From positions 1 through 63,394 of the forward strand of contig JAHINB010000017.1 of the NCBI GenBank assembly GCA_018896215.1: a DNA stretch of 63,394 nt. The letters are read 5' to 3'. This document shows positions 14,547-63,394 of this stretch, one piece after another. Under the pieces are notes generated by a model, which saw nothing but the letters and a program-made list of their open reading frames with translations, was not told where the DNA came from and searched no databases. This DNA comes from Patescibacteria group bacterium (GTDB taxonomy: Bacteria > Patescibacteriota > WWE3 > 0-14-0-20-40-13). How positions within the stretch are numbered: position 1 is the first letter of the stretch; each line of letters starts with the position of its first letter. A program made the translations under genes and the position numbers.

Positions 14547-14558
14547 GTATTCATATTA

Positions 14559-14607
14559 GCAAATTTGACCAATTAGTCCAATTAGGCTAATTAGACAAAT
14601 TGAACCC
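14559..14607. repeat. low-complexity repeat family E (AATTAGACCAATTAGTC-type)
   Basis: gaccaattagtccaattaggctaattagacaaatt. Related copies at 14943-14987, 51349-51397, 57240-57296 and 57459-57503. Confidence 0.7.
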
Positions 14608-14942
14608 AACAAAACCCTTGGGGAACATAACAAACCTTACTTAAGTAATTTATTTTACTTAAGTTAACTTAAGATCCTTAAAATATTTAAGTTTTGCTCC
14701 CACAAACCCCAAGAGTAGAGCAAAACCCCTACACCCGCATTGTCGTTAAATGTATGTTTAACGACTACAGGGATGTGAAGTAGCTGTAAATAGGGATTTT
14801 GCGGGAATTTAGATGAATCCAAATTAATACAACTAAATACCGGGGGAAATAGCAATAATTGGTATTTCAGAAAATACTAGCAATATACTAAAACAATTAA
14901 CAATTAAAATAATTGTTCTTTGCACTTCTCCTGTATCTCAAC

Positions 14943-14987
14943 GAATTAGTCCAATTGAACTAATTGGTCTAATTAGACAAATTCCAA
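14943..14987. repeat. repeat family E copy
   Basis: gaattagtccaattgaactaattggtctaattagacaaatt. Confidence 0.7.
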
Positions 14988-15064
14988 TCCCCCCCACAAC
15001 TTATCCACAACTATGACAAAAGCGACAGCTAAAGGCTTATAACTATGACAAACACCCATCTACA

Positions 15065-16912: not shown

Positions 16913-16970
16913 TTTTTTGGGGGAGACACCCCAAAACAATTCCTTGCCTTTAGGGGTGTCTCCCCGAAAT
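16913..16970. repeat. palindromic element family A (GGGGAGACACCCC ... GGGGTGTCTCCCC)
   Basis: 13-nt arms plus flanking TTT/AAA. One of eight copies. Confidence 0.85.
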
Positions 16971-16972
16971 CC

Positions 16973-17233
16973 CTATGTAGCTTTTTTCTCCAGTACCCCA
17001 ATTCTTACTTCGTGATTCTCTAATTGCTCTTCGTGACCATAAATTCTGGAGGAATGAAAAGTATGCTCCTCGTCAAATTTTTTAAACGCACCAACTAACC
17101 AATCTAGAGTATCGTATATTTTTCTTATATCCTCCCTAAACGGAGACAGTTTCTGCTCTAGTTTACTATCTAACTTAGTTTCTAAAGTTGCATCAAAATA
17201 TTCTTTTGTGAGAATTTCTGTTTTCTTAGGCAT
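16973..17233 (-). CDS. small coiled-coil hypothetical protein
   Basis: 86-aa ORF with host-like AT-rich codons and no recognisable domain. No clear SD. Confidence 0.35.
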   Translation of the reverse strand: MPKKTEILTKEYFDATLETKLDSKLEQKLSPFREDIRKIYDTLDWLVGAFKKFDEEHTFHSSRIYGHEEQLENHEVRIGVLEKKAT

Positions 17234-27110: not shown

Positions 27111-28138
27111 TCAACCACCCCCAACACCTTTCTCTCCGCCTCTTCTAAATCTATGCCAAGCAATAGTGCTGCAGAAGCCGCCTTGTGTCCCCCACCCCCG
27201 AGCGCCTTAGCGTAAATTGATGTATCCACGCCTTTTTGCGACCTAAAACTCACATGAATTCTTTTGGGTTCTTCCTCATTTAGAGTAAAGCAAAAGTCGT
27301 ATCCTCTAATATCCTTGATGGAGTCCACCGCCCCACCAACTTTATCTGGTTCAATATTGCTATCAAGGTACTCTTGATGGCTAATCTTACTATAACAAAA
27401 TCTTTTCTCATCATTAAACTTAAGATTATTATAAATGATTGAGAGATATTTTTTGTTCTCTTTGGGATAATTGTAAAGCATAATGCTAGACAGTTCTTGA
27501 TAATCCACGGTTGAGATAAGTTCTGCGACAATGCCAAGGAGCTTTGGAGAAATTTTCCATTTCAAATGCCCCGTGTCGGACAAAATACCCAGCAAAATCA
27601 TTTTTAGAATTTTCGGGTGACACCCCAAAACAGTGCCTTTAGGGGTGTCACCCGAAAATTTCCTCCCTTCCCTAAAGATTTGGTAAATTATCTCACTCGT
27701 GGAACTAGCTGTAGTATCCACATAATTTACCCCACCAAAATAAACAAGTTTGTTTCTGACGAAATAACTATTACCGGGGTGGTGATCAAGATTAATAATC
27801 TTGAGATTTGGTGGCAAGGTAAAATTGATTTTGTTATCTTTAGTGTATCTTGCCAAATCGGTAGAATCCAAAGCCAGCAGGGTATCGTATTTGGACATAT
27901 CCATTTTGTCTAACCCAGTCTCCCAATTGACAATTTTGTACTCGGGTAGCAAATCATAAAAACTCCCCATAGTATCGGCGCAAACGACTGTGGGGTTCTT
28001 GCCCATGCTTTGCAAAATGTAGTACGAGGCAAGAGCGCTTCCAAACGAATCCCCATCGGGACGGAAGTGGAGAGGGATAAGCACATGATTACTGTTTGCA
28101 AGAGCCGTTTTAACTTCAGAGAAGGTATTATTTTCCAT
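27068..28138 (-). CDS. DHH/DHHA1 phosphoesterase (NrnA-like)
   Basis: PDGDSFGS, DHH and GGGH motifs in canonical order. Confidence 0.8.
   Translation of the reverse strand: MENNTFSEVKTALANSNHVLIPLHFRPDGDSFGSALASYYILQSMGKNPTVVCADTMGSFYDLLPEYKIVNWETGLDKMDMSKYDTLLALDSTDLARYTKDNKINFTLPPNLKIINLDHHPGNSYFVRNKLVYFGGVNYVDTTASSTSEIIYQIFREGRKFSGDTPKGTVLGCHPKILKMILLGILSDTGHLKWKISPKLLGIVAELISTVDYQELSSIMLYNYPKENKKYLSIIYNNLKFNDEKRFCYSKISHQEYLDSNIEPDKVGGAVDSIKDIRGYDFCFTLNEEEPKRIHVSFRSQKGVDTSIYAKALGGGGHKAASAALLLGIDLEEAERKVLGVVDNFQFSKSKNCFDV
27611..27658. repeat. family A palindrome inside the DHH gene (in frame)
   Basis: TTCGGGTGACACCCC...GGGGTGTCACCCGAAAA is translated as FSGDTPKGTVLGCHPK. Confidence 0.85.
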
Positions 28139-30802: not shown

Positions 30803-31975
30803 TTAGACAAAGGCGGTAAGGAATTTGTCCGCGCTTATGACTCTAACATTACCAACCATTATGTCAATTTTGGGCTGAAACACTACTTGATACAAAAAAG
30901 GAATTCGCAGTCTCGCGCCGAAATAATTCAAATGAGAAGAGGGTATTGTGTCAGAAAGCTTTGCCTCCACCGCAAACCACGGCTTATTGTCCACCGCAAC
31001 CAGAAAATCCACTTCCCGACCCTCCGCATCCCGCAGATAGTAAAGATCAGAGCGAAACCCAAAAACATCGCGCAGATAATGGACGAATTTTAATAGATGC
31101 CCCGCTACCAAGTTCTCAAACCTTGCGGACTCGTCCGAAAGAACCGACCAATCCCACAAATACAGCTTCGTCATTTTCTTCAAAGAGCGCAGCATTTTTT
31201 GCCGGAACGGGGAAAGGCGAAAATGGTAGTAAAAAAGCTCCAAAATGGCAAGATAGTTGGCAACCGTTTTGTAGGCAACTTGCAAATCCTCGCAAAGCGC
31301 GTTTACCGAAAGCAAAGACCCAACTTTCTCCGGAAGGAGGTCCGCCAAAATCTGCAAGGTGGAAACATCCCCAATATAACGCAGATCCCGAATCTCCTCC
31401 TTGATCAACCGATCCACCCGATCGCTTTGCCAGCGACGCCAAAATGTGATGTTTCTTTTCGAAAACGGTTCGGGAAACGGACCAAAGCGCGACAATCTTT
31501 GCAAAATCTTCTCCCCATCTACGAGATCAACAAAATGTAATTCCTCAAAAGGCTTTGCTCGCCCCTTAGAACCGGTAAGCTCCACCAGGCTAAAAGGGTG
31601 CAAAACATAATACCGGCATCGACCAGAAAGCGAATCTCCGCCTCGGCGATACAAATCCATTTTGGCGCTTCCCGTAACCAAAAAACTGTGTCGTTCCCCC
31701 AGTCTGTCAAACAGACCTTTAATATAGGTTTTCCAGTGCCGAAACTTGTGAAGTTCGTCAAAAATCAGCAGTTCCGCCTTGGCAGGAAACCTGTAGCCTA
31801 CAATATCTTTGCGATCCGGCTGGTAATCCCAGTTAAAATAGGAAAAATTTGGATATGCAAATTTCCCAACCTGCTTTGACAAAGTAGTCTTTCCAACCTG
31901 CCTTGGTCCTCCAAGAAGCACGATTTTTTCCTTAACATCTTGGATTATTTCCTGCAAAAGATAGCGATTCTTCAT
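30803..31975 (-). CDS. AAA+ ATPase with DUF4143-type C-terminal domain (COG1373-like)
   Basis: Walker A GPRQVGKTTL, Walker B LLIFDELH. Same 390-aa size as the ATPase at 61049-62221. Confidence 0.75.
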   Translation of the reverse strand: MKNRYLLQEIIQDVKEKIVLLGGPRQVGKTTLSKQVGKFAYPNFSYFNWDYQPDRKDIVGYRFPAKAELLIFDELHKFRHWKTYIKGLFDRLGERHSFLVTGSAKMDLYRRGGDSLSGRCRYYVLHPFSLVELTGSKGRAKPFEELHFVDLVDGEKILQRLSRFGPFPEPFSKRNITFWRRWQSDRVDRLIKEEIRDLRYIGDVSTLQILADLLPEKVGSLLSVNALCEDLQVAYKTVANYLAILELFYYHFRLSPFRQKMLRSLKKMTKLYLWDWSVLSDESARFENLVAGHLLKFVHYLRDVFGFRSDLYYLRDAEGREVDFLVAVDNKPWFAVEAKLSDTIPSSHLNYFGARLRIPFLYQVVFQPKIDIMVGNVRVISADKFLTAFV

Positions 31976-49570: not shown

Positions 49571-50653
49571 TTATCCCCTCCCCACCCTAAACTCCACCAC
49601 ATCTCCATCTTTGACTAAGTATTCCTTCCCCTCCAACCTTGCCATTCCTTTCTCTTTAGCTTTACCCCAACTGCCGGCTTCGATGTATTTTTGATAGGAA
49701 ATGACATCTACTGCAATAAATAATCTTTCAAAGTCGCTATGGATAACACCAGCGCATTTTTGGGCGTTCCAGCCTTGTTTAAATTTCCAGGCTCGGCTTT
49801 CTTTTTCCCCTGTGGTTAGAAATGTGGAAAGCCCCAACATTTTATAAGCTTGACGAATGACTCCGTCAAGGGGCGCTTCGGTGAGTCCTAAGTCGGTAAG
49901 ATAAGCATTTCGATCTACAGTTGACAATGACGAGAGTTCAAATTCAATCTTGGCGGATACTTTCATACGGGACGATCTCATTTCATCCGGGTTCGTCCCA
50001 TTTGGGACGAACCCGATTGAATCCTCAGAAACATTTAGCACAGGTAAAATAGGTTTTAAGGTTAGCAAATTAAACCCTTGTAATTCCTCCAATTCTTCTT
50101 TGGTCCACTTCCCGTTCGCCAATAATTTCCCTGCATCGAGAACCCCCACAGCTTTTTTCAAAACATTGGGGTAGTACCCCGCAGGGGTACTACCCCCTTT
50201 CTTCCTAATCTCCTTTGAGTCCACGACCTTTGATAAAATCTCCAAATCCTTTAGCTTTAATTCCGTGAGTAGCACCTCCCTATCGCTTTCTGGATTGATA
50301 GAGCCCTCTCGAATAATTTCCGCGTCCTCAAAATCTCTTAGAAGTAGAAGGATTAGGTCGACTTCCCTGATATGGGCTAAAAACTTGTTTCCCAATCCCG
50401 CGCCAGTGGATGCACCTTTGACCAGACCAGCGATGTCTATAAATGTGATAGTTGAGTACACTTTTTTGGCAGAGTGCGAAAGTTCTGCCAATTTGTCAAC
50501 CCGACTATCTAAAACTTCGACGACTCCCGTGTTCGGCTCAATAGTAGCAAAAGGGTAATTAGCAACACAGGCTATTTGACGCTTTAAAATAGCGTTAAAT
50601 AAAGTGCTTTTTCCCACATTGGGCAACCCCACAATCCCCACGGACAAACTCAT
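49571..50653 (-). CDS. ychF: ribosome-binding ATPase YchF
   Basis: GIVGLPNVGKSTLFNA, DIAGLVKGAS and a C-terminal TGS-like domain ending DGDVVEFRV. Confidence 0.93.
   Translation of the reverse strand: MSLSVGIVGLPNVGKSTLFNAILKRQIACVANYPFATIEPNTGVVEVLDSRVDKLAELSHSAKKVYSTITFIDIAGLVKGASTGAGLGNKFLAHIREVDLILLLLRDFEDAEIIREGSINPESDREVLLTELKLKDLEILSKVVDSKEIRKKGGSTPAGYYPNVLKKAVGVLDAGKLLANGKWTKEELEELQGFNLLTLKPILPVLNVSEDSIGFVPNGTNPDEMRSSRMKVSAKIEFELSSLSTVDRNAYLTDLGLTEAPLDGVIRQAYKMLGLSTFLTTGEKESRAWKFKQGWNAQKCAGVIHSDFERLFIAVDVISYQKYIEAGSWGKAKEKGMARLEGKEYLVKDGDVVEFRVGRG
49964..50019. repeat. family C composite (GGGACGATC.. / GGGTTCGTCCC-attt-GGGACGAACCC) in frame in ychF
   Basis: Translated as ..SIGFVPNGTNPDEMRSSRMK.. 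Confidence 0.7.
50165..50200. repeat. family B palindrome in frame in ychF
   Basis: GGGGTAGTACCCC-gca-GGGGTACTACCCCC is translated as KKGGSTPAGYYPN. Confidence 0.8.
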
Positions 50654-51035: not shown

Positions 51036-52418
51036 CTACTTGTCCTGTACTTTGACACCTAACGCCTCTAACTGTTTTCTTAAACTATCCGCTAGAGCAT
51101 AGTTTTTGCTGGCTCTTGCGCGATCCCGCTGGGCAATTAGTTTTTTTGCTTCTTGCGGAATCTCTTTGACAAAGTCATCCTGATCCAGATTTAATCCCAA
51201 AACTTTGTCCCATTCTAAAAGCTTTTGTACAGCCTGCGACTGGTAACCGTTCTTTTTGGACTCGTTGACGAGCTCCCAAACTACCGCCATAACTTTAGGC
51301 ATGTTTAGATCGTCAGCTAAAGCATTAGCAAATTTTTTCTCGAAAAAATTTGCCAAATTAGACCAATTAGACAAATTAGTCAAATTCGGCCAATTCCCAG
51401 AAACAAAACCATACAATTTTTCTAACGCTTTACTACTCGCATCAAGTGCCTCCCAGGAAAAAGCGATAGTTTGCCTCCAATGGGAGCTGTAAGTATATAA
51501 TTTGTAAGCCAAGGGGTCATAACCTTTATCAATTAGAGTTTGCAAAGTCAAAAAATTCCCCGCGGATTTTGCCATTTTTTCTTCTTTTTCGGCATTTAAA
51601 AAACCCGCGTGGAGCCAATAATTTGCCATTTTGCGACCAGTTGCCACTTCGGTTTGGGCAATTTCGTTAGGATGGTGAATTTCCTTATGATCAATTGCGC
51701 CAGTGTGAATATCAAATGGGGCACCCAAATGCTTAAGCGAAATCGCCGAACACTCAATGTGCCACCCCGGAAAACCAATTCCCCACGGCGAATCCCATTC
51801 CATAGCGCGCTTTTTTCCAGAGATATTAAACTTCCACAAAGCAAAGTCGCGAGGATTCTTTCTTTCGGGATTGACATCTACACGAGCCCCTTCGATGATT
51901 CCAGAGTCTCGCAAAGACGACATCTGACCATACTCGGGAAATTTTTTAGTATCGAAGTAAATTCCATCACTTGTTTTGTAGGTTAGACCTTTTTCTTCTA
52001 ATTGAGAGATGAGACTAATTTGTTCAGGAACGGTATCGGTGGCTTTTTCCCACACAGTTGGGGGAAGCAAGTTGAGCCGTGCCATATCGCTCTTAAACGC
52101 CTTGAGGTAGAATTCAGATAATTCCCATGCGGTCATATTTTTTTCGGCAGAGGCTTTCTCTACTTTGTCCATCCCCATGTCACCATCGCCAGTAAGATGT
52201 CCCACATCGGTTACATTCATTACTCGTTTTACTTGGTAGCCAAAATAGGTTAATGCTCGAACCAGTAGGTCGTTAAAAATATAGGTACGGAGATTTCCAA
52301 TATGGGCATAGTTATAAACCGTCGGACCACAGGTATACAACCCTACATGGTTGGGTACAATTGAAACGAATTCCTCTTTTTTTCCCGTAAGCGAGTTGTA
52401 AAGTTGCAATTTATTCAT
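51036..52418 (-). CDS. cysS: cysteinyl-tRNA synthetase
   Basis: YTCGPTVYNYAHIGNLR (HIGH region) and KMAKSAGN (KMSKS). Confidence 0.95.
   Translation of the reverse strand: MNKLQLYNSLTGKKEEFVSIVPNHVGLYTCGPTVYNYAHIGNLRTYIFNDLLVRALTYFGYQVKRVMNVTDVGHLTGDGDMGMDKVEKASAEKNMTAWELSEFYLKAFKSDMARLNLLPPTVWEKATDTVPEQISLISQLEEKGLTYKTSDGIYFDTKKFPEYGQMSSLRDSGIIEGARVDVNPERKNPRDFALWKFNISGKKRAMEWDSPWGIGFPGWHIECSAISLKHLGAPFDIHTGAIDHKEIHHPNEIAQTEVATGRKMANYWLHAGFLNAEKEEKMAKSAGNFLTLQTLIDKGYDPLAYKLYTYSSHWRQTIAFSWEALDASSKALEKLYGFVSGNWPNLTNLSNWSNLANFFEKKFANALADDLNMPKVMAVVWELVNESKKNGYQSQAVQKLLEWDKVLGLNLDQDDFVKEIPQEAKKLIAQRDRARASKNYALADSLRKQLEALGVKVQDK
51349..51397. repeat. family E repeat in frame in cysS
   Basis: ccaaattagaccaattagacaaattagtcaaattcggccaatt is translated as NWPNLTNLSNWSNLAN. 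Confidence 0.75.
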
Positions 52419-53022: not shown

Positions 53023-54584
53023 ACAGGAACCTCTCCATCAAACACCTCCCAGGCTTCTTTTGCTTTTGTTGACTCCGACTGCTCGGGTTCTATATTTTTG
53101 TCGCTTAAATCCTTTTCTACCGGCAATTTTTTGCCCAACACCACGGCAAGCAAAACCGGTCTACCCAAAATTTCCGATGCGGCATCCTCGACAATTCTAC
53201 GGCTGGATGGAACCGACAGCCTTTCTTTGTGAAAAGAGTAAAAAGCCTCGACAATTAAACGGTCTTTATCAATCCCCACAATCTTGCAAGAGCGCAGTAG
53301 CGCCTCAACCGAGTGGTTTCTAGGTCTTACCGCTTCGTAAAGCGCCTCTTTGGTAAACGGGGCTTTTCCAATTCGATCGGGTACTACCCCTATTGTCTCT
53401 TTTTTCGGGGAGACACCCCTAAAGGCATTGGGATCCTGTTTTTGGGGTGTCTCCCCAAAGTACCCGCCCGCCTCCTCTGTTTCTTCTTTCTTAAAATCAA
53501 CAGTGGCTACTAACAACGGCAAATGTCCCACCGAGGCGTAACGAATCTGCCCTTTTGCCTCCAGAAATTTCTTGATAACAGTTGAAATAAATTCTATTGA
53601 GACCTTCTCCAGCCCCTCTTTGGCAAATTCCGTCTCCCCCACCCCCAACTTTTCCATCAGCAATGCTTTCAAAAACTCCAAAAAATTATCCACCCAGTTT
53701 TCGGCGGTAATTCCACCTTCAAAAATTTTCTCTAGGTATAAAACCCCCGCTTTAGCATTTCCAGTTGATAAATTTAGAAGAAAATCAATAAATTGATCCG
53801 AATCTGATGTAACAACCAAATCGTCCACCGTCACCTTGCCAAAAACCACCTGCTCCAGCATGGTTTCGGAGTCTCTAAAGCCCCCTTGCGAGGCTTGAGC
53901 AATTTTTTTAAGGTCGCCATCTGTTAAATCGGGAATTGGCGTTCCCTCTTTTTTTTCGGCAGTGATAATGCGTTCCAGCTTTTTCGTGATATCTATGATG
54001 GAAGCCCGCTTAAATTCAAACTTTTGGCATCGGCTTCTGATAGTATCGGGGACTTTTCTACTTTCGGTAGTACACAAAACAAAGACAGCGTGCTTTGGCG
54101 GCTCTTCTAGGGTTTTTAAAAGAGCGTTAAAGGCCTCGGCAGTTAACATGTGCACCTCGTCAATAATGTAGACCTTGTATTTTGCTTGAGCGGGCGACAA
54201 AATTATGCGATCCCGCAGAGTTCTAATGTCATCTATTCCGCGGTTGCTGGCGGCGTCAATTTCTATCACATCAATAAAACTGCCGTTTTCGATAGCTTTA
54301 CAGGTTGGACATTCTCCGCAGGGATCGTGTTTATCGGGGTCGAACCCCAATGAAAGATCGGGTGCCTTCTTAGGGGTTCGACCCCTATGTTCCCCAATGT
54401 TTTCGCAATTCAATGCCTTCGCCAAAAGCCTTGCCATTGTCGTCTTTCCCGACCCCCGAGGTCCATAAAAAAAGTAGGCGTGGGCAAAGTTTTTTGTCGC
54501 GATCGCCGAAAGAATTGCTGTTGACAGCGATGCAGAACCTAAAAACTCGCTAAAATTTTTGGGGCGGTATTTGGTATAGAACAC
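53019..54584 (-). CDS. dnaX: DNA polymerase III subunit gamma/tau
   Basis: GPRGSGKTT, Zn module CGECPTC, DEVHML, LLKTLEEPP and SRC. Confidence 0.93.
   Translation of the reverse strand: MFYTKYRPKNFSEFLGSASLSTAILSAIATKNFAHAYFFYGPRGSGKTTMARLLAKALNCENIGEHRGRTPKKAPDLSLGFDPDKHDPCGECPTCKAIENGSFIDVIEIDAASNRGIDDIRTLRDRIILSPAQAKYKVYIIDEVHMLTAEAFNALLKTLEEPPKHAVFVLCTTESRKVPDTIRSRCQKFEFKRASIIDITKKLERIITAEKKEGTPIPDLTDGDLKKIAQASQGGFRDSETMLEQVVFGKVTVDDLVVTSDSDQFIDFLLNLSTGNAKAGVLYLEKIFEGGITAENWVDNFLEFLKALLMEKLGVGETEFAKEGLEKVSIEFISTVIKKFLEAKGQIRYASVGHLPLLVATVDFKKEETEEAGGYFGETPQKQDPNAFRGVSPKKETIGVVPDRIGKAPFTKEALYEAVRPRNHSVEALLRSCKIVGIDKDRLIVEAFYSFHKERLSVPSSRRIVEDAASEILGRPVLLAVVLGKKLPVEKDLSDKNIEPEQSESTKAKEAWEVFDGEVPV
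53376..53459. repeat. family B half-copy plus full family A palindrome, in frame in dnaX
   Basis: Translated as YFGETPQKQDPNAFRGVSPKKETIGVVPD. Confidence 0.8.
54334..54388. repeat. family C variant (GGGGTCGAACCCC ... GGGGTTCGACCCC) in frame in dnaX
   Basis: Translated as HRGRTPKKAPDLSLGFDPD, immediately before the Zn module. Same arms as 55288-55381 in pth. Confidence 0.8.
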
Positions 54585-54894: not shown

Positions 54895-54930
54895 ATGCTT
54901 CTAGAAACACTTAAAACCAACCTGCTCGAA

Positions 54931-54986
54931 TCTTTCGGGGAGACACCCCTAAAGGCAAGGAATTGTTTTGGGGTGTCTCCCCTAAA
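54931..54986. repeat. family A palindrome, intergenic
   Basis: TTTCGGGGAGACACCCCTAAAGGCA...GGGGTGTCTCCCCTAAA. Confidence 0.85.
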
Positions 54987-55640: not shown

Positions 55641-55908
55641 GATGCACCCCCAACAAATGCTTCACCCCATGCTCCACCAACCGCGCTACTTCTTGTTCCA
55701 ACGACTGATGATTTTCCAACGCTTGGGTAGAGGCTTTGTCTAAGTTGACAATTACATCCCCCAAATAATATCTTCCATCGGGCAGTTCTTCGTTCATGTT
55801 AAAAGACAAAACATCTGTCGCATAGTCACGCTTGAGGTGTTTTTTATTGAGCTGGTGAATTTCCTTATCCCCCACAAGGGATATATTTATGAATGTATTT
55901 TTACGCAT
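55624..55908 (-). CDS. ybeY: endoribonuclease YbeY, N-terminally short
   Basis: TDVLSF and the H-x3-H-x5-H region HGVKHLLGVHH. Only 94 aa. Confidence 0.75.
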   Translation of the reverse strand: MRKNTFINISLVGDKEIHQLNKKHLKRDYATDVLSFNMNEELPDGRYYLGDVIVNLDKASTQALENHQSLEQEVARLVEHGVKHLLGVHHEGDS

Positions 55909-57209
55909 ATTGGCTTTTTTCGGGGAGACACCCCAAAACCATCCCTTGCCTTTAGGGGTGTCTCCCCAAAAGATTCTTCTCTTTTCTTTACTTCCGCCCC
56001 CCCCTGCCTAAGCGACTTTTCTGACACAATTATCCTCGTGGGACAACCAATGAGGTCGGCGTCCTTTATCTTTACCGCTAAAGATTCTTCGCGGTCATCT
56101 AGCAACGCATCGTTTCCTTCGCTAATCAACTTAGCATACAAAACATTAGACTGCTTGACAGCTTCGGGGTGATTGTTATCACAAAGAATATGGTATTTAA
56201 ATGGGGCAATATTTTCGGGCCAGATAATTCCGTTTTCGTCGTGACATAACTCCACAATGGTTCCCATTAACCTACCTACTCCAATACCATAAGCCCCAGC
56301 AATTACTGGCTTCTTTGAGCCGTCTTCGTCTGTAAAGAACAACCTCATGGGTTCGGTAAATCTAGTTCCCTGTTTAAAAATGTTCCCAACCTCAATGGAA
56401 TTAACAAATTCTGCTGTTTTGTCTTTTTCTTTCCGGGTGACACCCCTAAAGGCATTTGTCTGTTTTGGGGTGTCACCCGAAAAACCTTCCTCTCCATAGA
56501 TCTCTTTATTAATTGCAGTACCCTTTTCTTTGTCAATGTATATCCTATCTTCTCCCGCCTCACAAACAGTTTGATATTCGTGGGAATATTTACTAAAAGA
56601 TCCCCCACTTGCCAAAGTAAAATATGTTTTCTCCCCAATTCCCAGTCGGTCAAAAATTTTAGTATAGGCTTGCTTTGCTAATTCGTAAAATTCATCTAGT
56701 TGAGAATCATCCGCAGTAAAGGAATACAGATCTTTCATCATAAATTCGCGAGTGCGAAGCAATCCACCTTGAGCCCTTTTTTCGTTGCGGTATTTTGTCT
56801 GAAATTGATACACAAAACATGGCAAGTCTTTATAAGAATTAATATGACTTGTCATAAGTCTTGCCAAGGGCTCTTCGTGGGTAAATGAAAGCCCCACCTC
56901 TGAACCGTTGACAAGTTTTGTTTTAAACCATGAGTCCACTACTTTGTCATCCCAACGCCCGCTAGCCTTCCACACTGCTGGATCCTGCAAACTACTCATT
57001 AAAATCTCTTGGCCCCCAATGGCATTCATTTCTTCTCGAATGATCTGGATGATTTTATTGAGAACAATCAGACCTAAAGGCAAAAAGCTATACACCCCCG
57101 CCATTTCTTTATGGATAAAACCCCCGCGGATGAGCAATTTGGCGTTAATGCTAGTTTCGTCTTTAGGCGTCTCTCTTTTGGTTTTGGTAAATAACTTTGT
57201 TTGGTGCAT
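55887..57209 (-). CDS. proS: prolyl-tRNA synthetase (no editing insertion domain) with two family A insertions
   Basis: Class II motifs (FRDE-like TREFMMKD, GAYGIGVGR) and a C-terminal anticodon-binding domain. Start is MHQTKLF at 57209. Confidence 0.9.
   Translation of the reverse strand: MHQTKLFTKTKRETPKDETSINAKLLIRGGFIHKEMAGVYSFLPLGLIVLNKIIQIIREEMNAIGGQEILMSSLQDPAVWKASGRWDDKVVDSWFKTKLVNGSEVGLSFTHEEPLARLMTSHINSYKDLPCFVYQFQTKYRNEKRAQGGLLRTREFMMKDLYSFTADDSQLDEFYELAKQAYTKIFDRLGIGEKTYFTLASGGSFSKYSHEYQTVCEAGEDRIYIDKEKGTAINKEIYGEEGFSGDTPKQTNAFRGVTRKEKDKTAEFVNSIEVGNIFKQGTRFTEPMRLFFTDEDGSKKPVIAGAYGIGVGRLMGTIVELCHDENGIIWPENIAPFKYHILCDNNHPEAVKQSNVLYAKLISEGNDALLDDREESLAVKIKDADLIGCPTRIIVSEKSLRQGGAEVKKREESFGETPLKARDGFGVSPRKKPICVKIHS
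55915..55972. repeat. family A palindrome forming the 3' end of proS, just upstream of the ybeY start
   Basis: Translated as SFGETPLKARDGFGVSPRKK. Confidence 0.85.
56430..56484. repeat. family A palindrome (opposite orientation) in frame in proS
   Basis: Translated as FSGDTPKQTNAFRGVTRKE. Confidence 0.85.
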
Positions 57210-57239
57210 TTTCTTATATTTTCCTAAACTTCTTCTTAT

Positions 57240-57296
57240 CAAATTAGACTAATTAGTCAAATTAGTCAAATTAGACCAATTCTTTAATTAGACCGA
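57240..57296. repeat. family E repeat, intergenic, at the boundary of the accessory array
   Basis: aaattagactaattagtcaaattagtcaaattagaccaattc. Confidence 0.7.
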
Positions 57297-57833
57297 TTTG
57301 TTTTTGTAATCTAAACGCTTTTTAAACAGGTTTTCTCTAAATCCCCCATTTTTTACAAATTCCTCTTCTAACGACCTATAAAAATTATCTAGTAAATAGG
57401 TTTCTTTGTAGATCAAACAAACCATTATGTTTGCAGAGTCTTCTGGTTTTTCCAAAGACAAATTGCACCAATTGGTCAAATTGGACAAATTAGTCGAATT
57501 TGCAACTTCTTCTTTAAAAGAACGAATTTTTAAAACACGGGGGTCGTTTTTATCCCAAAGGGTAAGTTTGTTAATACGCAAAAAATCTTTGTAATCTTCT
57601 AGCAATTCACCAAAACTGGCGCGAGCAACGCTAACAAGTTTTAATTTGCTTTCACAACTTTTCTCTAAAACACCTTCCACAATGTTCTGTTTGCAACTCC
57701 TTGCTGCTTGAACCATTTGTTCTACAGTTCTTTTAAATGCAAAGGTTTTTAAATATTTTTGGCAAAACGCATCGTTGGCATCGTAAATTGTTGTTGCTAG
57801 CCTGTAAACTAACAAATTTTCGTATTTTTGCAT
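57288..57833 (-). CDS. four-helix-bundle protein (23S-IVS/S23p-like family) with C-terminal suffix domain
   Basis: YENLLVYRLA..., QMVQAARSCKQNIVEG and VARASFGELLEDYKDFL follow the four-helix-bundle family pattern. Confidence 0.65.
   Translation of the reverse strand: MQKYENLLVYRLATTIYDANDAFCQKYLKTFAFKRTVEQMVQAARSCKQNIVEGVLEKSCESKLKLVSVARASFGELLEDYKDFLRINKLTLWDKNDPRVLKIRSFKEEVANSTNLSNLTNWCNLSLEKPEDSANIMVCLIYKETYLLDNFYRSLEEEFVKNGGFRENLFKKRLDYKNKSV
57459..57503. repeat. family E repeat in frame in the four-helix-bundle gene
   Basis: Translated as NSTNLSNLTNWCNL. Confidence 0.7.
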
Positions 57834-57835
57834 TT

Positions 57836-58267
57836 TTAAACCCCCTCCTTAAACTTCTGCCAGGTTTTTTGCAGGTGCAGGATTTTGTACCTTACTGTTA
57901 GATAGGATTTTATAATTTCGGAATGTGACTGGCTGTCCAAGACAGGGGCAACTCCGGCACCGGGACGGACAAGATCTCTAAACAACTCCAAATGCACCAC
58001 CGCTAAATTACAATTTAGCATCGCAAGCTCCAAAGTTTCTTGAGACCCTTTAAAATCGTCAAAACGGATTGAGTGAGCTTTAGCTATGAGACGAGGTAAA
58101 TCCACTACATATTTTATCAGGGGGTTTTTAATCAATTCCTCAAGTAGTGGCGTGGTCTGACAATCATTGACAGCCTTTACCACCATAACCCCATTTGCCA
58201 GAAGTTTTTGGTAAATTTCTAAATCCTGAAAACTTTTAACCGGTCTTCTTGGGTAGTATTTAATCAT
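57836..58267 (-). CDS. divergent four-helix-bundle-like protein
   Basis: The N-terminal SFQDLEIYQKL matches the family start. The rest is helical but diverged. Confidence 0.45.
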   Translation of the reverse strand: MIKYYPRRPVKSFQDLEIYQKLLANGVMVVKAVNDCQTTPLLEELIKNPLIKYVVDLPRLIAKAHSIRFDDFKGSQETLELAMLNCNLAVVHLELFRDLVRPGAGVAPVLDSQSHSEIIKSYLTVRYKILHLQKTWQKFKEGV

Positions 58268-58271
58268 AGTT

Positions 58272-59708
58272 TTACAATTTACCTGGTCTTACCTCAATAA
58301 CCTTCTTCTCCTCCTCATTGATATGGTATTTACCTTCTATCGTAGTTACCGTCTTCCTTCTTCTTGTTTTAGACGGTTTATACAAAACATGCAAGGGATA
58401 AAATTCAAAATAGTCTTTTTCATCAAACCAGGCGCATTTAAATTCAAACAGTCGTAATCCCGTCAACCGTGAGAGCGCCATCGCGTATATGGTAAGTTGG
58501 TCAATTGGCTGTTCTTTGGCGGCGTTGGGCTTGTAATCTAGGATATGAATTTGCCCATTACGAATTTGAACGAGGTCTATGTGTCCGGTAATAAGCTTTG
58601 GGAGCCCAGTGCCGACATTGCTTATATCTTCTGATCCTTGTCCCATTGCCGGTGTTGCACCTTGCTTCTGCAAATCGTCCCTATCGGGACTTTGTGACTG
58701 GCTGACCGTCCCGGTGCCGACATTGCCCCTATCTTCTGATCCCTGTCCCTCCCTTACCGAAATTTTGTTAAAAATCTCGAAGCCAAGTTGTGTCTGCATA
58801 TGCAACAAATCCTCGCGAGTGATGTAAACTGGCACTTCGGTTGCCACGGTCACGGAGTCGTTGAATAAAAAGAATTTTTGCACCGCCTCGTGTCGCATAG
58901 TACGAGCTTTGACACTTTGTAAGATGAATTGGCATAATTTAACAGCATAGTTGACTTTACTGCGAACAATCATCTGCTTTTTGGAAAATGTGATGGGCGC
59001 CTCCGATGCCCTACATCCGCCCTCGCTGGCAAAGTATTGATGGGGGCATTCCGAAGGCACAAGTTCCAAAAATTCTTTTAAGGGGGCAAATTTGCGGTGA
59101 GCGTATTCCTCTTGAATCATCAGAGCGCATTTAGCGCGGTGAAAGCGGTAGCGATAAAGCTGGCGGTGAGCAAGCGTTGCTGTAACTACGGTGTTTTTCG
59201 GCTCGTACTTTTTTACCACAAACTCTCGCATCCGTTGATATTTGCAATATTCCCCAAATTCCATCAACCAGGCCGAGACCGTCGACGGCTGAAGGGAAAA
59301 TCTAATATCTAAATTCGAAATTCTAGATAAATCCAAATTTTCCAAATTAGAATGTTCCAAATCTTTTTGTTTTGTGTTTTGAGCATTCATATTTTGAGTT
59401 TGTTTAGGATTTAGGGTTTCGGGTTTAGAATTTATTATTGTACAAGTCCCTTCCAACGAATGCCCCAGATTATAGAGGCTCAACGCGTTAAAAACAGTCT
59501 CCAGCGGATAGTGTTTGCCTAAATTTTTTTGCGGGGTAAAAGTTCTTCCACAGCTTTGACAGAGGTAAAGCTGAATTTTTTCGTACTTTTTTTGCCTAAA
59601 ACCCCGCCTCACAAAGCTTTTGCTTTGGCAGTACGGGCAACAAAATGTGTCGTAGATTGGTTTTTTACTTTCCAAATGTTTGAAGGAATTATAGTCGTGC
59701 AATCTCAT
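58272..59708 (-). CDS. Zn-ribbon (IS1 InsA-like CxxC..CxxC) + RecB/Cas4-like PD-(D/E)XK nuclease-domain protein
   Basis: N-terminus CPYCQSKSFVRRG...LCQSCGRTF. C-terminus EVPVY...GHIDLV...ILDYKP...QLTIYA (E, D, D-x-K and Q-x3-Y motifs). Confidence 0.6.
   Translation of the reverse strand: MRLHDYNSFKHLESKKPIYDTFCCPYCQSKSFVRRGFRQKKYEKIQLYLCQSCGRTFTPQKNLGKHYPLETVFNALSLYNLGHSLEGTCTIINSKPETLNPKQTQNMNAQNTKQKDLEHSNLENLDLSRISNLDIRFSLQPSTVSAWLMEFGEYCKYQRMREFVVKKYEPKNTVVTATLAHRQLYRYRFHRAKCALMIQEEYAHRKFAPLKEFLELVPSECPHQYFASEGGCRASEAPITFSKKQMIVRSKVNYAVKLCQFILQSVKARTMRHEAVQKFFLFNDSVTVATEVPVYITREDLLHMQTQLGFEIFNKISVREGQGSEDRGNVGTGTVSQSQSPDRDDLQKQGATPAMGQGSEDISNVGTGLPKLITGHIDLVQIRNGQIHILDYKPNAAKEQPIDQLTIYAMALSRLTGLRLFEFKCAWFDEKDYFEFYPLHVLYKPSKTRRRKTVTTIEGKYHINEEEKKVIEVRPGKL
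58605..58749. repeat. two ~40-bp direct repeats 105 bp apart, around a GTCCC-tatc-GGGAC palindrome, in frame between nuclease motifs
   Basis: Unit 58605-58644 versus unit 58710-58749. Translated as GQGSEDISNVGTG and GQGSEDRGNVGTG. Confidence 0.75.
59301..59433. repeat. complete AT-rich family D element in frame in the nuclease gene
   Basis: Translated as NSKPETLNPKQTQNMNAQNTKQKDLEHSNLENLDLSRISNLDIR. Confidence 0.7.
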
Positions 59709-60420
59709 CTCTAAGCAAACTCAAAACCTCGCTTTTTAAAGCTTTTCTTATAGAAGAAAACCTTGCAAGAGGCATTAACATGTTTAGATCTTCATCAATT
59801 ACCGAAGAGGTAACCTTTGATTCAACGAATTCTTTAAGTTTTTTTAAATAATCCAAAGTGTTCAAAGAAGTCCTTTGCTCAATCACTTTTTTGTTGTAGG
59901 GATATCCGTTGACAAAAAAATAATATATATCGTATATATCTCTACCTGCCACGGTCCCGTGTTTAGTGTAGCGATCCAGAACCGCCACCAATTTGTGAGC
60001 AAACATAGTATCTATTGTTTGACAAGTAAGATATCTATCAATATCCGCTAAATAAGTGGGTTTAAAAACATCAGAATCTAAAGCGAATCCAACGGCGTCA
60101 AATTTTAAAGTGTTGCGCAACTCTTTTGGAGCTGAATATTTTAACACATACTGTACCGTGGACTTGTTTCTGTTTTTAATGTTAAAATCTAGTTTTTTAA
60201 AAATCTCTTCCAGCGCCGTCCTTACAAAGTCTTTTGGAGTTTCTTGCTTTAAGTCAAAATCCAAATCAACGGAAAACCTGTCCAAATAATCTTGCATAGC
60301 GGCGCATGTCCCCCCTTTAAATATAAGAGCTTTGGAAAGTTGAGGGCTGTCCGCAATTTCTATTAGTATTTTGTGTAACTGGCTCCTATGCAAAGCTTCT
60401 TTTGGACTTGGTAAAATCAT
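59689..60420 (-). CDS. AbiEii/AbiGii-family nucleotidyltransferase toxin (type IV TA)
   Basis: LIFKGGTCAAMQDYLDRFSVDLDFD matches the DUF1814 signature (KGGTA..R.S.DlDF). Confidence 0.8.
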   Translation of the reverse strand: MILPSPKEALHRSQLHKILIEIADSPQLSKALIFKGGTCAAMQDYLDRFSVDLDFDLKQETPKDFVRTALEEIFKKLDFNIKNRNKSTVQYVLKYSAPKELRNTLKFDAVGFALDSDVFKPTYLADIDRYLTCQTIDTMFAHKLVAVLDRYTKHGTVAGRDIYDIYYFFVNGYPYNKKVIEQRTSLNTLDYLKKLKEFVESKVTSSVIDEDLNMLMPLARFSSIRKALKSEVLSLLRDEIARL

Positions 60421-60959
60421 ATATACCCCACCTCCTTTTGGATGGTTTTGACTCTTTCCCAGTCAATGGCGTTTCTTAAGTCAAAATGATATTTGGAGTT
60501 AAAATAAAGCATATCCGCAACCGCTCTCTCGGGACTGGCTTCTTTGTAGTTTTGTTGTTCCAAGATACCTGCGCTTTGGAATAAAAAGGCAGGTTTTAAT
60601 TTCCGACTAATAAATGATGTTCCGTTAATATTAATTTTTTTATTCTTTGATGAACAAAAGGTGAAATGTGGGACACTTTGGAAGATGATGCCGTCTTTTG
60701 CTAACACTGATTCTGTGCTTAGGTAGCAGTAATCGTGGATTGCGGAAGTTCCTAATTCTGTGGCGTTAATAGTGTTTAATTCCACAGTGGAGTAGAATCC
60801 GCGATATATCTGAATTAAGTAACCCTTTTTTAAATACCTGTTGATTGTTGAATACAAGGTGTTTTTATTGTTTATGTTCCACAATAATTCAAGATCTTGG
60901 GTGTGGAACAGCTTTTTCGATTGTTTAAGCAGAACATCTAGTTTGTTTATACTTTGCAT
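60417..60959 (-). CDS. AbiEi-family antitoxin-like protein
   Basis: Lies upstream of AbiEii with a 4-nt overlap. wHTH-like LYSTINRYLKKGYLIQIYRGFY. Likely start is MQSINK at 60959. Confidence 0.65.
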   Translation of the reverse strand: MQSINKLDVLLKQSKKLFHTQDLELLWNINNKNTLYSTINRYLKKGYLIQIYRGFYSTVELNTINATELGTSAIHDYCYLSTESVLAKDGIIFQSVPHFTFCSSKNKKININGTSFISRKLKPAFLFQSAGILEQQNYKEASPERAVADMLYFNSKYHFDLRNAIDWERVKTIQKEVGYI

Positions 60960-60989
60960 ATATGAATAGTATACTACAACCAACAGAAC

Positions 60990-61041
60990 TTTACCACACT
61001 GCAATCCAATACAATTTTTGCTCCGCCGTTGGCGCAGTCCC
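60990..61041. repeat. 52-bp perfect direct repeat, copy 1
   Basis: tttaccacactgcaatccaatacaatttttgctccgccgttggcgcagtccc, identical to 62268-62319. Confidence 0.9.
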
Positions 61042-61048
61042 CTATTGA

Positions 61049-62221
61049 TCAATAGAAATTATCTATGGTAATCAATTTTACTTTAGCATTGGGATACCTG
61101 TTATTAAAAGCGGAGCAAGCCCTTCCTTTTGCGGTTTTTATTTCGCAGGCAATTACTTCTTCGCCTTGATGTAAAACAAGATCAACCTCGGCTCCTTGAA
61201 CAGTGCGCCAAAAAGCTAATTTATATCCCGCGTTGCTGTATACATTGTGTTTTAATATTTCGCCGATGACAAAATTTTCAAACATCGCTCCAAAATCCCT
61301 TCGTAAAAATGGATTGGAGAAATCTTCTATTACGGCATTTCTCAATCCAAGATCATAAAAATATATTTTTGGCGCCTTGCCTATTTCGTCCCGTCTTTTG
61401 CTTGTGAACGGGTATAAACGGAAGAGAATAAAGCTTTGCTCAAAAATGGATATGTATCGCTGGACTGTTCTCGCGTCAACCCCAAGTTTTGCGGCAAGTT
61501 CGGAATAGTTGATTAGATTGCCGATTTGATAGGCAAGTAGTTTTAGAAGATTAGAAGCTACCGCGCGGTTTTCAATTAGGTTAAGCTCAAAAATGTCTTT
61601 ATAAATTGACGAGGACGCCAGTTCGCTTAAATATAAAGAGTCGGACGGGTTTTGGACTAGATACGGGTTTAAACCGTAAGTAAGTATTCTGCCAACAGTT
61701 GCGGAAAGGTCGAATTGATGAATTGACGGGGATAATTTTCCGGAAACCAGCCTTTCTAAAAAGTTATCGTGGAGTTCCTCCTCTGTTCTGGTTTGATACA
61801 AATATTCGGAAAAAGTAAGAGGGAATAATTGGTAGTCTATTTTGCGCCCGGCAAGGCTTTCAGACGCGGTATTTTTGATATTTAGGGCGGAAGATCCCGT
61901 GATAATAAGTTGTACATTCGGCATTTGATCATAAATAATCTTCGCCGCGCGCCCGGGGTCTGGCAGTAACTGGATTTCATCAATAATTACGGTTTTACTG
62001 CTTTGCGACCCGATAAATTGGCGATATGAATGGATATCATAAGTTTCAAAGTTTTTTCGCGCGGGGTCGTTGTCCAGCAAAAAATATTGCGCCTCGGGAA
62101 AAAGTCTTTTCAGCAAAGTGGTTTTGCCTACTTGCCGCGCTCCTAAAAGCAGAAGTATCTGCCTTCGGTTTTTAAAGTGGGATTTGATTTGGGAATCAAT
62201 CTGCCTTGTTAAAAGATTCAT
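61049..62221 (-). CDS. AAA+ ATPase with DUF4143-type C-terminal domain
   Basis: Walker A GARQVGKTTL, Walker B VIIDEIQ. 390 aa, same size as the ATPase at 30803-31975. Confidence 0.75.
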   Translation of the reverse strand: MNLLTRQIDSQIKSHFKNRRQILLLLGARQVGKTTLLKRLFPEAQYFLLDNDPARKNFETYDIHSYRQFIGSQSSKTVIIDEIQLLPDPGRAAKIIYDQMPNVQLIITGSSALNIKNTASESLAGRKIDYQLFPLTFSEYLYQTRTEEELHDNFLERLVSGKLSPSIHQFDLSATVGRILTYGLNPYLVQNPSDSLYLSELASSSIYKDIFELNLIENRAVASNLLKLLAYQIGNLINYSELAAKLGVDARTVQRYISIFEQSFILFRLYPFTSKRRDEIGKAPKIYFYDLGLRNAVIEDFSNPFLRRDFGAMFENFVIGEILKHNVYSNAGYKLAFWRTVQGAEVDLVLHQGEEVIACEIKTAKGRACSAFNNRYPNAKVKLITIDNFY

Positions 62222-62267
62222 ATGTTGTTTTGATTATAATCATTGATACATATAAATGTCAATTAGT

Positions 62268-62319
62268 TTACCACACTGCAATCCAATACAATTTTTGCTC
62301 CGCCGTTGGCGCAGTCCCT
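62268..62319. repeat. 52-bp perfect direct repeat, copy 2 (last 16 codons plus stop of the tail-fibre-like gene)
   Basis: Identical to 60990-61041. Confidence 0.9.
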
Positions 62320-63394
62320 AGCTTGATAGTAAACCCGTCTTTGGTAATACCCTCTACCCAAACCGTGGTTTCGTAGGAAGGCGTAACAGTAATGGTGGTT
62401 GGTGGTGTATCCCAAGTTTTGCTAATAACAACTTCGGTGATTTCGGCAGAAACATTGACTACATCTCTAAAGCTCTCGTTCCCCGCAATGACCCCTTCGG
62501 CGATTTCCAGATTTCCGGTTTTGCTAATTTTGACAGAGTTTTGCAACACCAAGTCTCCCGAGAGAGTGTTGATGGATACCCCCTCTTCTGCCAAACCGTT
62601 GATGGTTAATAGTCCAATTGATAGGTCGCCAGTGAGTGACAAATCTCCCAAAGTGGTCTTACCAAGAACTGACAAATCTTTGTAGAGGACAAGGTTTTGA
62701 TCTAGCGATACAAAGTCGGTCTCAACTGTAAACAGCGAAAGATCCGACGGGGTTTCAGGTGGCGAGACGGATTCTGGATTAGTTGCTCCGATTCCCAAAT
62801 AACTTTCCATGGCAAGGATTCTATTTGTGAGAGCATCAACAGTAGTAGCTATATCACGACTCTGGGAGGCTAAAATCTCACTAGTTTCGGAAATATCGAG
62901 GGGTTGTTGCGCATCCGTGAGGTTTTTGACAGCATCTCCCAACTCGTTTATTTTAAGATTCTGTTCTTTGATTCCCTCCACCAATAATGCGGTTAATTTC
63001 TCATAATGGATTCCGTAAAACTCCTCCCCTGCCTCATTTGTAAAGGTATAAGTGGCTTCGGGAAGTCCTACGGCGATTAAGTCTTGCGCAATAAGGCCTA
63101 AGCGCTTTTTACTGCCATCAGAGTCTTCTACGGGGTTGTAGAGGTAGCCGCTAAGGCTTGTGATTTTGGCTAGCGCGCCTGTAAGGGGTTCTAGGTTCTT
63201 TTTAAGGCGCAGATCGGAGCTGGTAAGCCCAATATCGCCACTAGCGCTCTTGTAAACTACAGTATCTCCGTCGGCAGTCCAAGTGTCTATTCTGATTCTT
63301 CCGGCAACTTGGAGTTTTTGAAGGGGGTTTGTCGTCCCGATGCCGACGTTGCCCGATTTATCAATTCTGACTTGTTCCGTATTTGCTGTTCTAA
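62268..63394 (-). CDS. tail-fibre-domain protein with peptidase S74 intramolecular-chaperone domain; 5' end outside the window
   Basis: I checked the frame codon by codon and it stays open from 62984 to the window end. It reads ..GNVGIGTTNP..SSDLRLKKNLEPLTGALAKITSLSGYLYN..KRLGLIAQDLIAVGLPEA..IHYEKLTALLVEGIKEQ, the S74 chaperone consensus. Confidence 0.7.
   Translation of the reverse strand, partial: RTANTEQVRIDKSGNVGIGTTNPLQKLQVAGRIRIDTWTADGDTVVYKSASGDIGLTSSDLRLKKNLEPLTGALAKITSLSGYLYNPVEDSDGSKKRLGLIAQDLIAVGLPEATYTFTNEAGEEFYGIHYEKLTALLVEGIKEQNLKINELGDAVKNLTDAQQPLDISETSEILASQSRDIATTVDALTNRILAMESYLGIGATNPESVSPPETPSDLSLFTVETDFVSLDQNLVLYKDLSVLGKTTLGDLSLTGDLSIGLLTINGLAEEGVSINTLSGDLVLQNSVKISKTGNLEIAEGVIAGNESFRDVVNVSAEITEVVISKTWDTPPTTITVTPSYETTVWVEGITKDGFTIKLGTAPTAEQKLYWIAVW

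Follow-up and report, generated by a model that had tools for sequence, protein, structure and literature searches.

Do the six closely spaced genes on one strand near the end of a Patescibacteria contig form a single system, or are they independent units that share a landing site? We addressed this question in a stretch of 63,394 nt (the window; contig JAHINB010000017.1 of assembly GCA_018896215.1), and coordinates are given in window numbering. The array encodes a DUF4143/AAA_14 ATPase, the AbiEi and AbiEii proteins, a nuclease that joins a zinc ribbon to a RecB/Cas4-like PD-(D/E)XK core, and two four-helix-bundle (4HB) proteins, here named 4HB1 and 4HB2 (Table 1). An initial annotation had taken the tight coupling of these genes as a sign of a functional unit and proposed a composite defence module. 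Our analysis shows that the conserved functional unit consists of the nuclease and 4HB1 alone, frequently accompanied by a 4HB satellite, while AbiE and the DUF4143 ATPase stand outside it. Rather than making up one system, the six genes belong to independent selfish or defence cassettes that have accumulated behind a giant tail-fibre-like gene, at its 3' end. The units are a 1277-bp cassette with the DUF4143 ATPase (PDC-S01) and its own promoter-like site, the AbiEi/AbiEii type IV toxin-antitoxin (TA) pair, the two-gene cassette of nuclease and 4HB1, and the facultative classic 4HB gene 4HB2. Taken as a whole, the explanation that we lean towards, with a confidence only slightly past the midpoint, is that, within such an accretion, nuclease and 4HB1 act as a selfish cassette of the homing type.

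The composition of the unit was derived from gene neighbourhoods. We compared 80 loci with nuclease relatives (numbered with the prefix L), which were chosen by nuclease homology from species-representative genomes and searched by tblastn with the window proteins. 4HB1 lies directly downstream of the nuclease in 74 of the 80 loci; if loci with too little downstream DNA are set aside, the count is 74 of 75. Five of the six loci without 4HB1 end at a contig edge. A reverse search by 4HB1 motifs yielded 30 loci, and the nuclease was directly upstream in all 28 that had enough upstream DNA. The start of 4HB1 frequently overlaps the nuclease stop by 4 nt across loci. The other genes of the array were rarely found near the nuclease: AbiEi in 2/80 loci, AbiEii in 1/80, DUF4143 in 3/80, 4HB2 in 7/80 and ProS in 3/80. 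Because the linkage of nuclease and 4HB1 (74/80 and 28/28) contrasts with 1 to 3 of 80 for AbiE and DUF4143, we define the unit as these two genes. Classic 4HB open reading frames (ORFs) are overrepresented close to the pair: 18 of 32 fall within 800 nt of it, in 23% of the sequence (17 of the 80 loci; p = 5e-5), and 4HB2 is a facultative satellite. Thus, the functional coupling that had been read into the close spacing holds for the nuclease and 4HB1, with the nearby classic 4HB genes as a looser addition, but not for AbiE or DUF4143; likewise, the idea that the nuclease might co-occur with 4HB genes and/or AbiE in other genomes was borne out for 4HB1 and failed for AbiE. Since every ORF of at least 120 amino acids (aa) from position 49571 to the window end lies on the minus strand, co-directionality is weak evidence for a unit.

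The modular gain and loss of the remaining genes could be followed in related loci. The contig of a 98-99% identical strain (L081) retains the tail-fibre-like gene, DUF4143, the nuclease and 4HB1; a 975-bp deletion (window 59851-60825) with 11-bp microhomology takes out most of AbiEi and AbiEii, and a 113-bp deletion breaks 4HB2. Because this strain lost AbiE and broke 4HB2 while keeping the pair intact, AbiE and 4HB2 are independent of nuclease/4HB1. The DUF4143 gene and one copy of a 52-nt direct repeat make up a 1277-bp insertion unit; the gene was inserted separately, and its insertion duplicated the final 52 nt of the giant gene. Locus L007 contains two DUF4143 genes, each followed by a copy of the giant-gene 3' end, and the direct repeats around DUF4143 cassettes in the window and in L007 (9458-9622, 10972-11125 and 12528-12582) copy the last 50-150 nt of the giant tail-fibre-like gene. 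This arrangement suggests that the DUF4143 ATPase gene moves as a site-specific cassette of its own, which perhaps integrates as a circle by a single crossover. One contig of run X3, a groundwater metagenome, joins position 62266 to 60990, going back 1277 nt across the 52-nt repeat. A circle or a tandem copy could produce such a joint, as could an artefact of the assembly graph; a low-coverage artefact is possible because the 52-nt repeat exceeds the assembler k-mer, which we take to be 31. Such metagenome contigs can attest that an arrangement exists but not that it is missing. At 30803-31975 on the minus strand, the window has a second DUF4143/AAA_14 paralogue with 28% identity to the array copy.

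Between the giant gene and the nuclease lies a slot that acts as a cargo hot spot, and the giant-gene 3' end is a recurrent landing site. At least one small ORF fills the slot in 37 of 64 loci, and those occupants that were identified belong to the classic 4HB, LPD3-like and PemK families (by Pfam) or to DUF4143 and AbiEi (by homology to the window genes). A classic 4HB or LPD3-like gene is present there in L001 and L002, and AbiE without DUF4143 in L004. Cargo was also observed at other positions. In L110 (1-5856), the two halves of a split intein enclose not just the nuclease and 4HB1 but also an AbiEi-like gene and a DUF4143 gene; L103 (WWE3) carries a 61% identical DUF4143 gene after 4HB1 (3584-4741); and in L084 (2219-5469), a VapBC-like pair, a DUF4143 gene and an IS200-like gene follow a giant-gene homologue that has no nuclease pair.

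A single anti-phage module made of all six genes would fit the tight spacing on one strand and the presence of defence or candidate-defence families (AbiE, PDC-S01), and AbiE occupies the same slot in L004, while L110 and L103 again place DUF4143 genes, in the former with an AbiEi-like gene, beside the pair. The neighbourhood counts largely refute this model, however, and the 52-nt repeat and promoter-like site mark DUF4143 as a separate insertion. The loss of AbiE and the breakage of 4HB2 in a near-identical strain that kept nuclease and 4HB1, together with the many unrelated small genes that hold the slot elsewhere, speak against the composite as well. We consider it highly improbable.

The whole array is anchored to the giant tail-fibre-like gene. 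Upstream of the pair and on its strand, 68 of the 71 loci with upstream sequence have a large ORF of the same family; such ORFs carry Peptidase_S74 or Peptidase_G2 chaperone domains, domains of the LamG or Ig-like type and numerous GNVGIGTTxP modules. In about one-third of the loci, the host gene is split by an intein and the pair lies in the split. Pfam detected the N-part of Intein_splicing at the C-terminal end of the upstream ORF of L006 (the sole upstream ORF scanned) and the intein C-part at the N-terminal end of the large ORF after 4HB1 in L006, L007 and L015. With iterated hidden Markov models (HMMs) built from the halves, the pair was found between the N-terminal (IntN) and C-terminal (IntC) halves of a class-1 intein in 27/80 loci; both halves were seen in 22 of these, and the other 5 have one half off the contig. 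The junctions are of the canonical kind. The N-side junction reads ...KLHVEG | C[VLM]TGDTLLPIRRRR...TTANHPYL, followed by a stop codon, and the C-side junction ...VYDIEVEGTHNFVGNGIIAHN | TYIxGNLGIGTT, while the junction sequence without intein is ...KLHVEG|TYISGNLGIGTT. The splicing residues are intact in these related loci: Cys1 is present in 24/24 IntN sequences together with the TxxH block, and IntC ends in HN with a Thr at position +1. In L034 and L065, IntN and the nuclease form one in-frame ORF. These fusions are the nearest approach to an embedded nuclease; among the 150 top representatives, none is embedded in a giant protein, and we rejected the possibility that the nuclease is a true intein domain. 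Contiguous inteins of the same family in L069 (1025-2308) and L038 (5378-6655) have a NYN (PIN-like) domain where the endonuclease would normally lie. We know of no other NYN domain at the homing endonuclease position of an intein.

The nuclease itself belongs to a family of 1945 clusters (90% identity; E <= 1e-3), and all named sources are Patescibacteria; the best 120 relatives are 50-99% identical over the full length. The zinc-ribbon cysteines C24, C27, C50 and C53 are invariant in alignment A1 and almost so in A2. PDDEXK_1 (PF12705) matches at 1.7e-5 and 25.4 bits (cut-off 22), confined to aa 372-415, and the predicted strands and helix of the core fit a PD-(D/E)XK fold, with a predicted local distance difference test score (pLDDT) of ~75-82 there. 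The catalytic residues E291, D378, D391-x-K393 and Q404xxxY408 are invariant across 56 homologues. It had been considered that two repeat insertions might have inactivated the enzyme; this can be dismissed because the insertions sit in loops of variable length and leave the catalytic residues untouched. The repeat families of both loops occur elsewhere in the window too. The loop-2 repeat (33-40 nt; 58703-58735) recurs inverted at 57939-57971 as an in-frame insert in 4HB1 (VRPGAGVAP...), and G-rich inserts resembling it (NLGTGT, NIGSGT) are present in homologues from other genomes. Like RecB, AddA and Cas4, which are its top, weak fold matches, the nuclease has the E...D...(D/E)xK...QxxxY motif set. 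It differs from them in its N-terminal zinc ribbon and large conserved middle domain. The four cysteines of the Cas4 Fe-S cluster are absent: the conserved cysteines are those of the zinc ribbon plus C89, C194, C221 and C425, and there is no C-terminal CxxCxxxxxC. No cas genes were found among the neighbours of the 80 loci, and a PDB sequence-profile search with the nuclease matched a solved structure for the zinc ribbon alone.

The N-terminal domain also matches the zinc domains of IS1-, IS1595- and IS256-type transposases, some sources label relatives as "transposase-like", and some genomes contain several copies; together, these features would suit the transposase of an unrecognized insertion sequence (IS) with 4HB1 as its accessory gene. 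Yet no terminal inverted repeats flank the pair in the window, and the pair is found nearly always after a giant gene and not scattered. Moreover, the catalytic domain is of the RecB/Cas4-like PD-(D/E)XK and not of the DDE type, and the IS1 model reaches 27 bits against a cut-off of 100, the zinc domain alone matching. An insertion sequence is thus a very remote prospect.

The second gene of the pair is less easily assigned to a family. 4HB1 is predicted to fold into a four-helix bundle (pLDDT 85). The window protein had no HMM match in Pfam, PADLOC or NCBIfam; 3 of 25 relatives match PF05635 (best 4.5e-6), and an hhalign profile-profile comparison with classic 4HB neighbours was negative. On these two grounds, we rejected 4HB1 as a plain TIGR02436 member, and it appears to be at most a very divergent member of the TIGR02436/PF05635 family. 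Its best folds in Foldseek are 2RLD of the S23/intervening-sequence (IVS) family (template modelling [TM] scores 0.65/0.78, E = 0.017) and Avd of diversity-generating retroelements (DGRs; TM 0.68/0.83), with non-significant E-values. The 23S rRNA IVS proteins and Avd resemble the pair in that both are encoded within intervening or mobile elements; unlike the IVS family, 4HB1 has no rRNA context. With respect to DGRs, no recurring reverse transcriptase-like cluster was found among the neighbours of the 80 loci (example sequences of the top clusters, few of them scanned with Pfam), and no repeat of the template/variable type was found in 57200-62300. 4HB2, by comparison, passes the cut-offs of TIGR02436 (2e-5, 24.8 bits; cut-off 24) and TIGR04258 (4.8e-15, 55.2 bits; cut-off 40), while its Pfam score of 26.1 bits is under the cut-off of 33.8. 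It is the single match of the classic-4HB profile in the window. Arrays of a 9-nt unit (CAAATTAGA-like) are present at 14551-14611, 14942-14993, 51345-51405, 57231-57300 and 57450-57510; one of them lies inside 4HB2 beside the 113-bp deletion of L081, and another lies between 4HB2 and proS.

The first reading of the array as a defence module gained no support for the nuclease pair. Because the conserved context of the pair is a giant surface-protein gene, with a split intein in about one-third of the loci, we hypothesized that the pair is a homing-type selfish cassette. What was observed directly is the linkage, the context, the integrity of the catalytic and splicing residues and the gain and loss of modules. 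Where it is nested between intein halves, the pair occupies the place at which a homing endonuclease would sit. In the proposed mechanism, the zinc ribbon and the helical region would bind DNA, and the PD-(D/E)XK domain would cut alleles of the giant gene that do not contain the cassette. Repair from a cassette-bearing copy would then copy the pair in, as for free-standing homing endonuclease genes and fractured genes. 4HB1, frequently translationally coupled, would act with or on the nuclease, probably as a required cofactor or a restrainer; this is the least certain step. Several signs of mobility were observed. One Moraniibacteriota metagenome-assembled genome holds three nuclease copies that are 91% identical to each other and 85% identical to the nearest other genome, and intein-nested and non-nested forms are mixed among close nuclease relatives. 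Copies of the giant-gene 3' end flank a nuclease-containing segment in L036 and L070, and the giant-gene homologue of L084 is without the pair. Repeats of the giant-gene 3' end around the nuclease pair were not found in the window, where the sole such repeat flanks DUF4143.

The layout as such is already known. In so-called fractured genes (Dassa et al. 2009, PMC2677866), an intein is split and a free-standing homing endonuclease gene separates its two halves. The 27 nested loci share this design, with the host gene in two ORFs, an IntN end, an IntC start and a same-strand nuclease ORF in between; as in fractured genes, the nuclease is also found as a stand-alone insert without an intein, which is the form present in the window. 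The split host gene was thus not found in the window itself. Further differences are the type of nuclease (a zinc-ribbon RecB/Cas4-like PD-(D/E)XK enzyme, not GIY-YIG or Vsr-like), the insert of two genes with an obligate 4HB partner, the host gene (a giant surface or tail-fibre-like protein, not an enzyme of DNA metabolism), the hosts (cellular Patescibacteria, with none found in viral collections) and the extra cargo genes inside the split. Compared with the literature that we found, the novel elements are the nuclease family, the obligate 4HB partner, the giant surface-protein host gene and the cellular setting in the candidate phyla radiation (CPR). We found no paper on the nuclease/4HB1 pair or on split inteins in CPR giant proteins, within incomplete literature coverage.

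Free-standing homing endonuclease genes of the Seg and Mob types are known from T4-like phages, as is collaborative homing (see also PMC10448857). As with these genes, the window nuclease lies beside its presumed target gene and not inside it, at a boundary with gene gain and loss; the nuclease fold, the two-gene unit and the cellular host are different, and cleavage is here predicted only. A search of 50,697 phage records and of IMG/VR yielded no relative, and a phage origin of the pair was rejected on this basis. PD-(D/E)XK enzymes do occur among homing endonucleases, an example being I-Ssp6803I.

Several points weigh against a homing cassette. We infer DNA cleavage, its target and homing. 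No intein halves were found with the iterated HMMs in the window or in its closest relatives (L001-L004 and L081), so intein remnants in the window were rejected; in all of these, the pair lies behind a complete giant gene, which ends normally. The homing reading of the window therefore rests on related loci. The full-length identity of 43-75% and the ~100 invariant residues in the nuclease family are unusually conserved for a homing endonuclease gene, and such strong conservation would also fit a domesticated host function. The AlphaFold2 model of the nuclease is poor (pLDDT 58.6), and its top folds in Foldseek, AddA, RecB and Cas4, are non-significant (E > 0.01). Sampling proceeded from nuclease homology and not from giant genes, and L084 is one case of a giant gene without the cassette. 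In addition, the surroundings of the pair are rich in small TA and defence-like genes. We also know of no homing endonuclease or homing system that needs a second protein such as 4HB1. High conservation, the lack of a known homing system with a second protein and a window without an intein are the reasons why our confidence was held just above the midpoint.

The clustering of small defence-like genes raises the possibility that nuclease and 4HB1, with or without 4HB2, are a stand-alone defence or TA-like system, in which the helical protein restrains or triggers a restriction-like nuclease and the location by giant surface-protein genes is incidental, reflecting a local defence island. The strict two-gene linkage with its common 4-nt overlaps would be consistent with this, as would neighbours rich in PemK, AbiE, VapC-like, DUF4143 and other small accessory genes, the classic 4HB genes enriched nearby and a weak PADLOC match of the nuclease to an Argonaute-associated Cas4-like nuclease (2.5e-5). 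It leaves unexplained, however, the intein-nested position in 27/80 loci and the IntN fusions. The pair is constant while its neighbours vary, which is the reverse of typical defence islands, and no known defence family matched the pair at significant scores. The absence of relatives from phage and viral collections is neutral on a defence role. On balance, we regard a stand-alone defence system as unlikely.

High conservation under purifying selection, the constant same-strand position after giant genes, the highly repetitive nature of these genes and the resemblance of the 4HB1 fold to Avd would also be compatible with a domesticated host factor. The pair could then introduce breaks that drive recombination and variation among the repeated GNVGIGTT modules or paralogous giant genes, or it could regulate how the split gene is expressed, the 4HB protein playing an Avd-like accessory part. 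The fold resemblance has non-significant E-values, though, and neither a reverse transcriptase nor another recurring partner was found among the neighbours. The distribution seems patchy, as illustrated by the giant-gene homologue in L084, and an intein-nested position is the hallmark of selfish endonucleases. A host factor therefore appears quite improbable to us. Returning to the homing cassette, a more specific form of it would be that the zinc-ribbon nuclease and 4HB1 constitute a new two-component homing system of Patescibacteria that invades giant surface-protein genes and their inteins; we put this forward tentatively, as a possibility that we doubt more than we believe.

Table 1. Features of the array and its anchor gene in the window
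Feature	Position	Strand	Characteristics
Giant tail-fibre-like gene, 3' part	62268-63394	minus	Peptidase_S74 PF13884, 1e-11; uninterrupted GNVGIGTTNPLQKLQVAG module; ends ...EQKLYWIAVW-stop; runs off the window
Direct repeat copy 1	62267-62318		52 nt, perfect; last 52 nt of tail-fibre-like gene including stop codon
Promoter-like TTGACA-N18-TATAAT	62233-62262	minus	12/12 consensus match only; inside the insert, just upstream of DUF4143
DUF4143/AAA_14 ATPase	61049-62221	minus	Walker A GARQVGKT, Walker B VIIDEIQ
Direct repeat copy 2	60990-61041		52 nt, identical; begins 7 nt past the DUF4143 stop
AbiEi antitoxin/regulator	60417-60959	minus	longest ORF, to TTG 61052, reads through repeat copy 2
AbiEii nucleotidyltransferase toxin	59689-60420	minus	GGT...DLDF motif; 4-nt overlap with AbiEi (60417-60420)
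Zinc-ribbon, helical middle domain and RecB/Cas4-like PD-(D/E)XK nuclease	58272-59708	minus	20-nt overlap with AbiEii
CxxC...CxxC zinc ribbon, IS1/IS1595-type	59535-59639 (aa 24-58)	minus	NF050000, 3.2e-7
Variable loop 1 of nuclease	59289-59426 (aa ~95-140)	minus	copies of a genome-wide TCTAAAT-type repeat
PD-(D/E)XK core	58425-58850 (aa 287-428)	minus	E291, D378, D391, K393, Q404, Y408; split by variable loop 2
Variable loop 2 of nuclease	58605-58757 (aa ~318-368)	minus	2-3 copies of a 40-nt repeat (GQGSED..NVGTG)
4HB1, divergent four-helix-bundle protein	57836-58267	minus	4-nt gap to nuclease; motifs YPRRPVKSFQDLEVYQK and AHSxRF
4HB2, classic TIGR02436 four-helix bundle with TIGR04258 suffix domain	57288-57833	minus	2-nt gap to 4HB1

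The basic description of the array in the initial annotation was confirmed. The six minus-strand ORFs were reproduced with their coordinates and junctions, and so was the position between proS, 45 nt downstream of 4HB2, and the Peptidase_S74 tail-fibre-like gene, which ends 46 nt upstream of DUF4143. The proposed identities agree with profiles of Pfam, PADLOC and NCBIfam, from which the domain calls were made, and for 4HB1 with the predicted structure; PADLOC matched AbiEi, AbiEii and PDC-S01. The DUF4143 ATPase scores above the cut-offs for PF13635 (5e-41, 140.5 bits) and AAA_14 (PF13173; 1e-29, 103.5 bits) and is a full-length match to PDC-S01 (PDLC04789, 1.8e-106, aa 4-389). It shares with this candidate single-gene defence system the full-length match and the Walker A and B motifs, but the window copy is a discrete cassette with 52-nt direct repeats at the giant-gene 3' end. 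Mobility is, to our knowledge, not part of the PDC-S01 description. AbiEi was detected by PADLOC (4.5e-30) and NF047376 (8.6e-13), and AbiEii by PADLOC (5.5e-27) and PF08843 (1.5e-16, 61.5 bits; cut-off 22.5). The layout is that of AbiE type IV TA systems, with AbiEi directly upstream of a DUF1814/AbiEii nucleotidyltransferase and the usual 4-nt overlap; both components, with the nucleotidyltransferase motif, are present at 59689-60959. Neutralization of toxicity and abortive infection are predicted for this pair. With respect to the nuclease pair, AbiE is just a neighbour, and the near-identical strain has lost it. The start of AbiEi is likely ATG 60959 rather than TTG 61052 because the L004 orthologue aligns from the ATG; this start leaves an 89-nt gap after DUF4143.

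Additional variation was observed next to the array. The proS genes of the window (55887-57242) and of L081 (5389-6810) occupy the same position between flanks that are 98-100% identical, but they are non-orthologous, their proteins sharing 23% identity. A ProRS-C_1 domain is present in the L081 gene, and contigs of runs X1 and X6 carry the same proS replacement. Hairpin repeats (GGGGAGACACCCC...GGGGTGTCTCCCC) are scattered over the window at 16913-16987, 27610-27676, 29985-60, 53402-53478, 54930-54986, 55915-55989 and 56427-56501. In dnaX, pth and proS, repeats of the hairpin type are read in frame as peptide inserts (e.g., FGETPxK...F(R)GVSPxK), and these inserts resemble the palindromic elements of Rickettsia.

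These results remove a false composite "defence system" and resolve it into AbiE, DUF4143 and the nuclease pair as separate units. They reveal a widespread, undescribed nuclease and four-helix-bundle cassette in Patescibacteria and identify the giant surface-protein genes of the CPR as hot spots for selfish DNA. The split-intein location gives the pair a testable function. If confirmed, this would establish a further family of homing endonucleases, one that comes with an obligate partner protein; it would also supply protein engineering with many natural split inteins not known before and offer the first functional handle on a large orphan four-helix-bundle family. Should the two-component homing system prove true, many giant adhesin-like proteins of the CPR would be made by protein trans-splicing, and four-helix-bundle (Avd/rRNA-IVS) proteins would serve mobile intervening elements in general as accessory factors, from rRNA intervening sequences and DGRs to split inteins.

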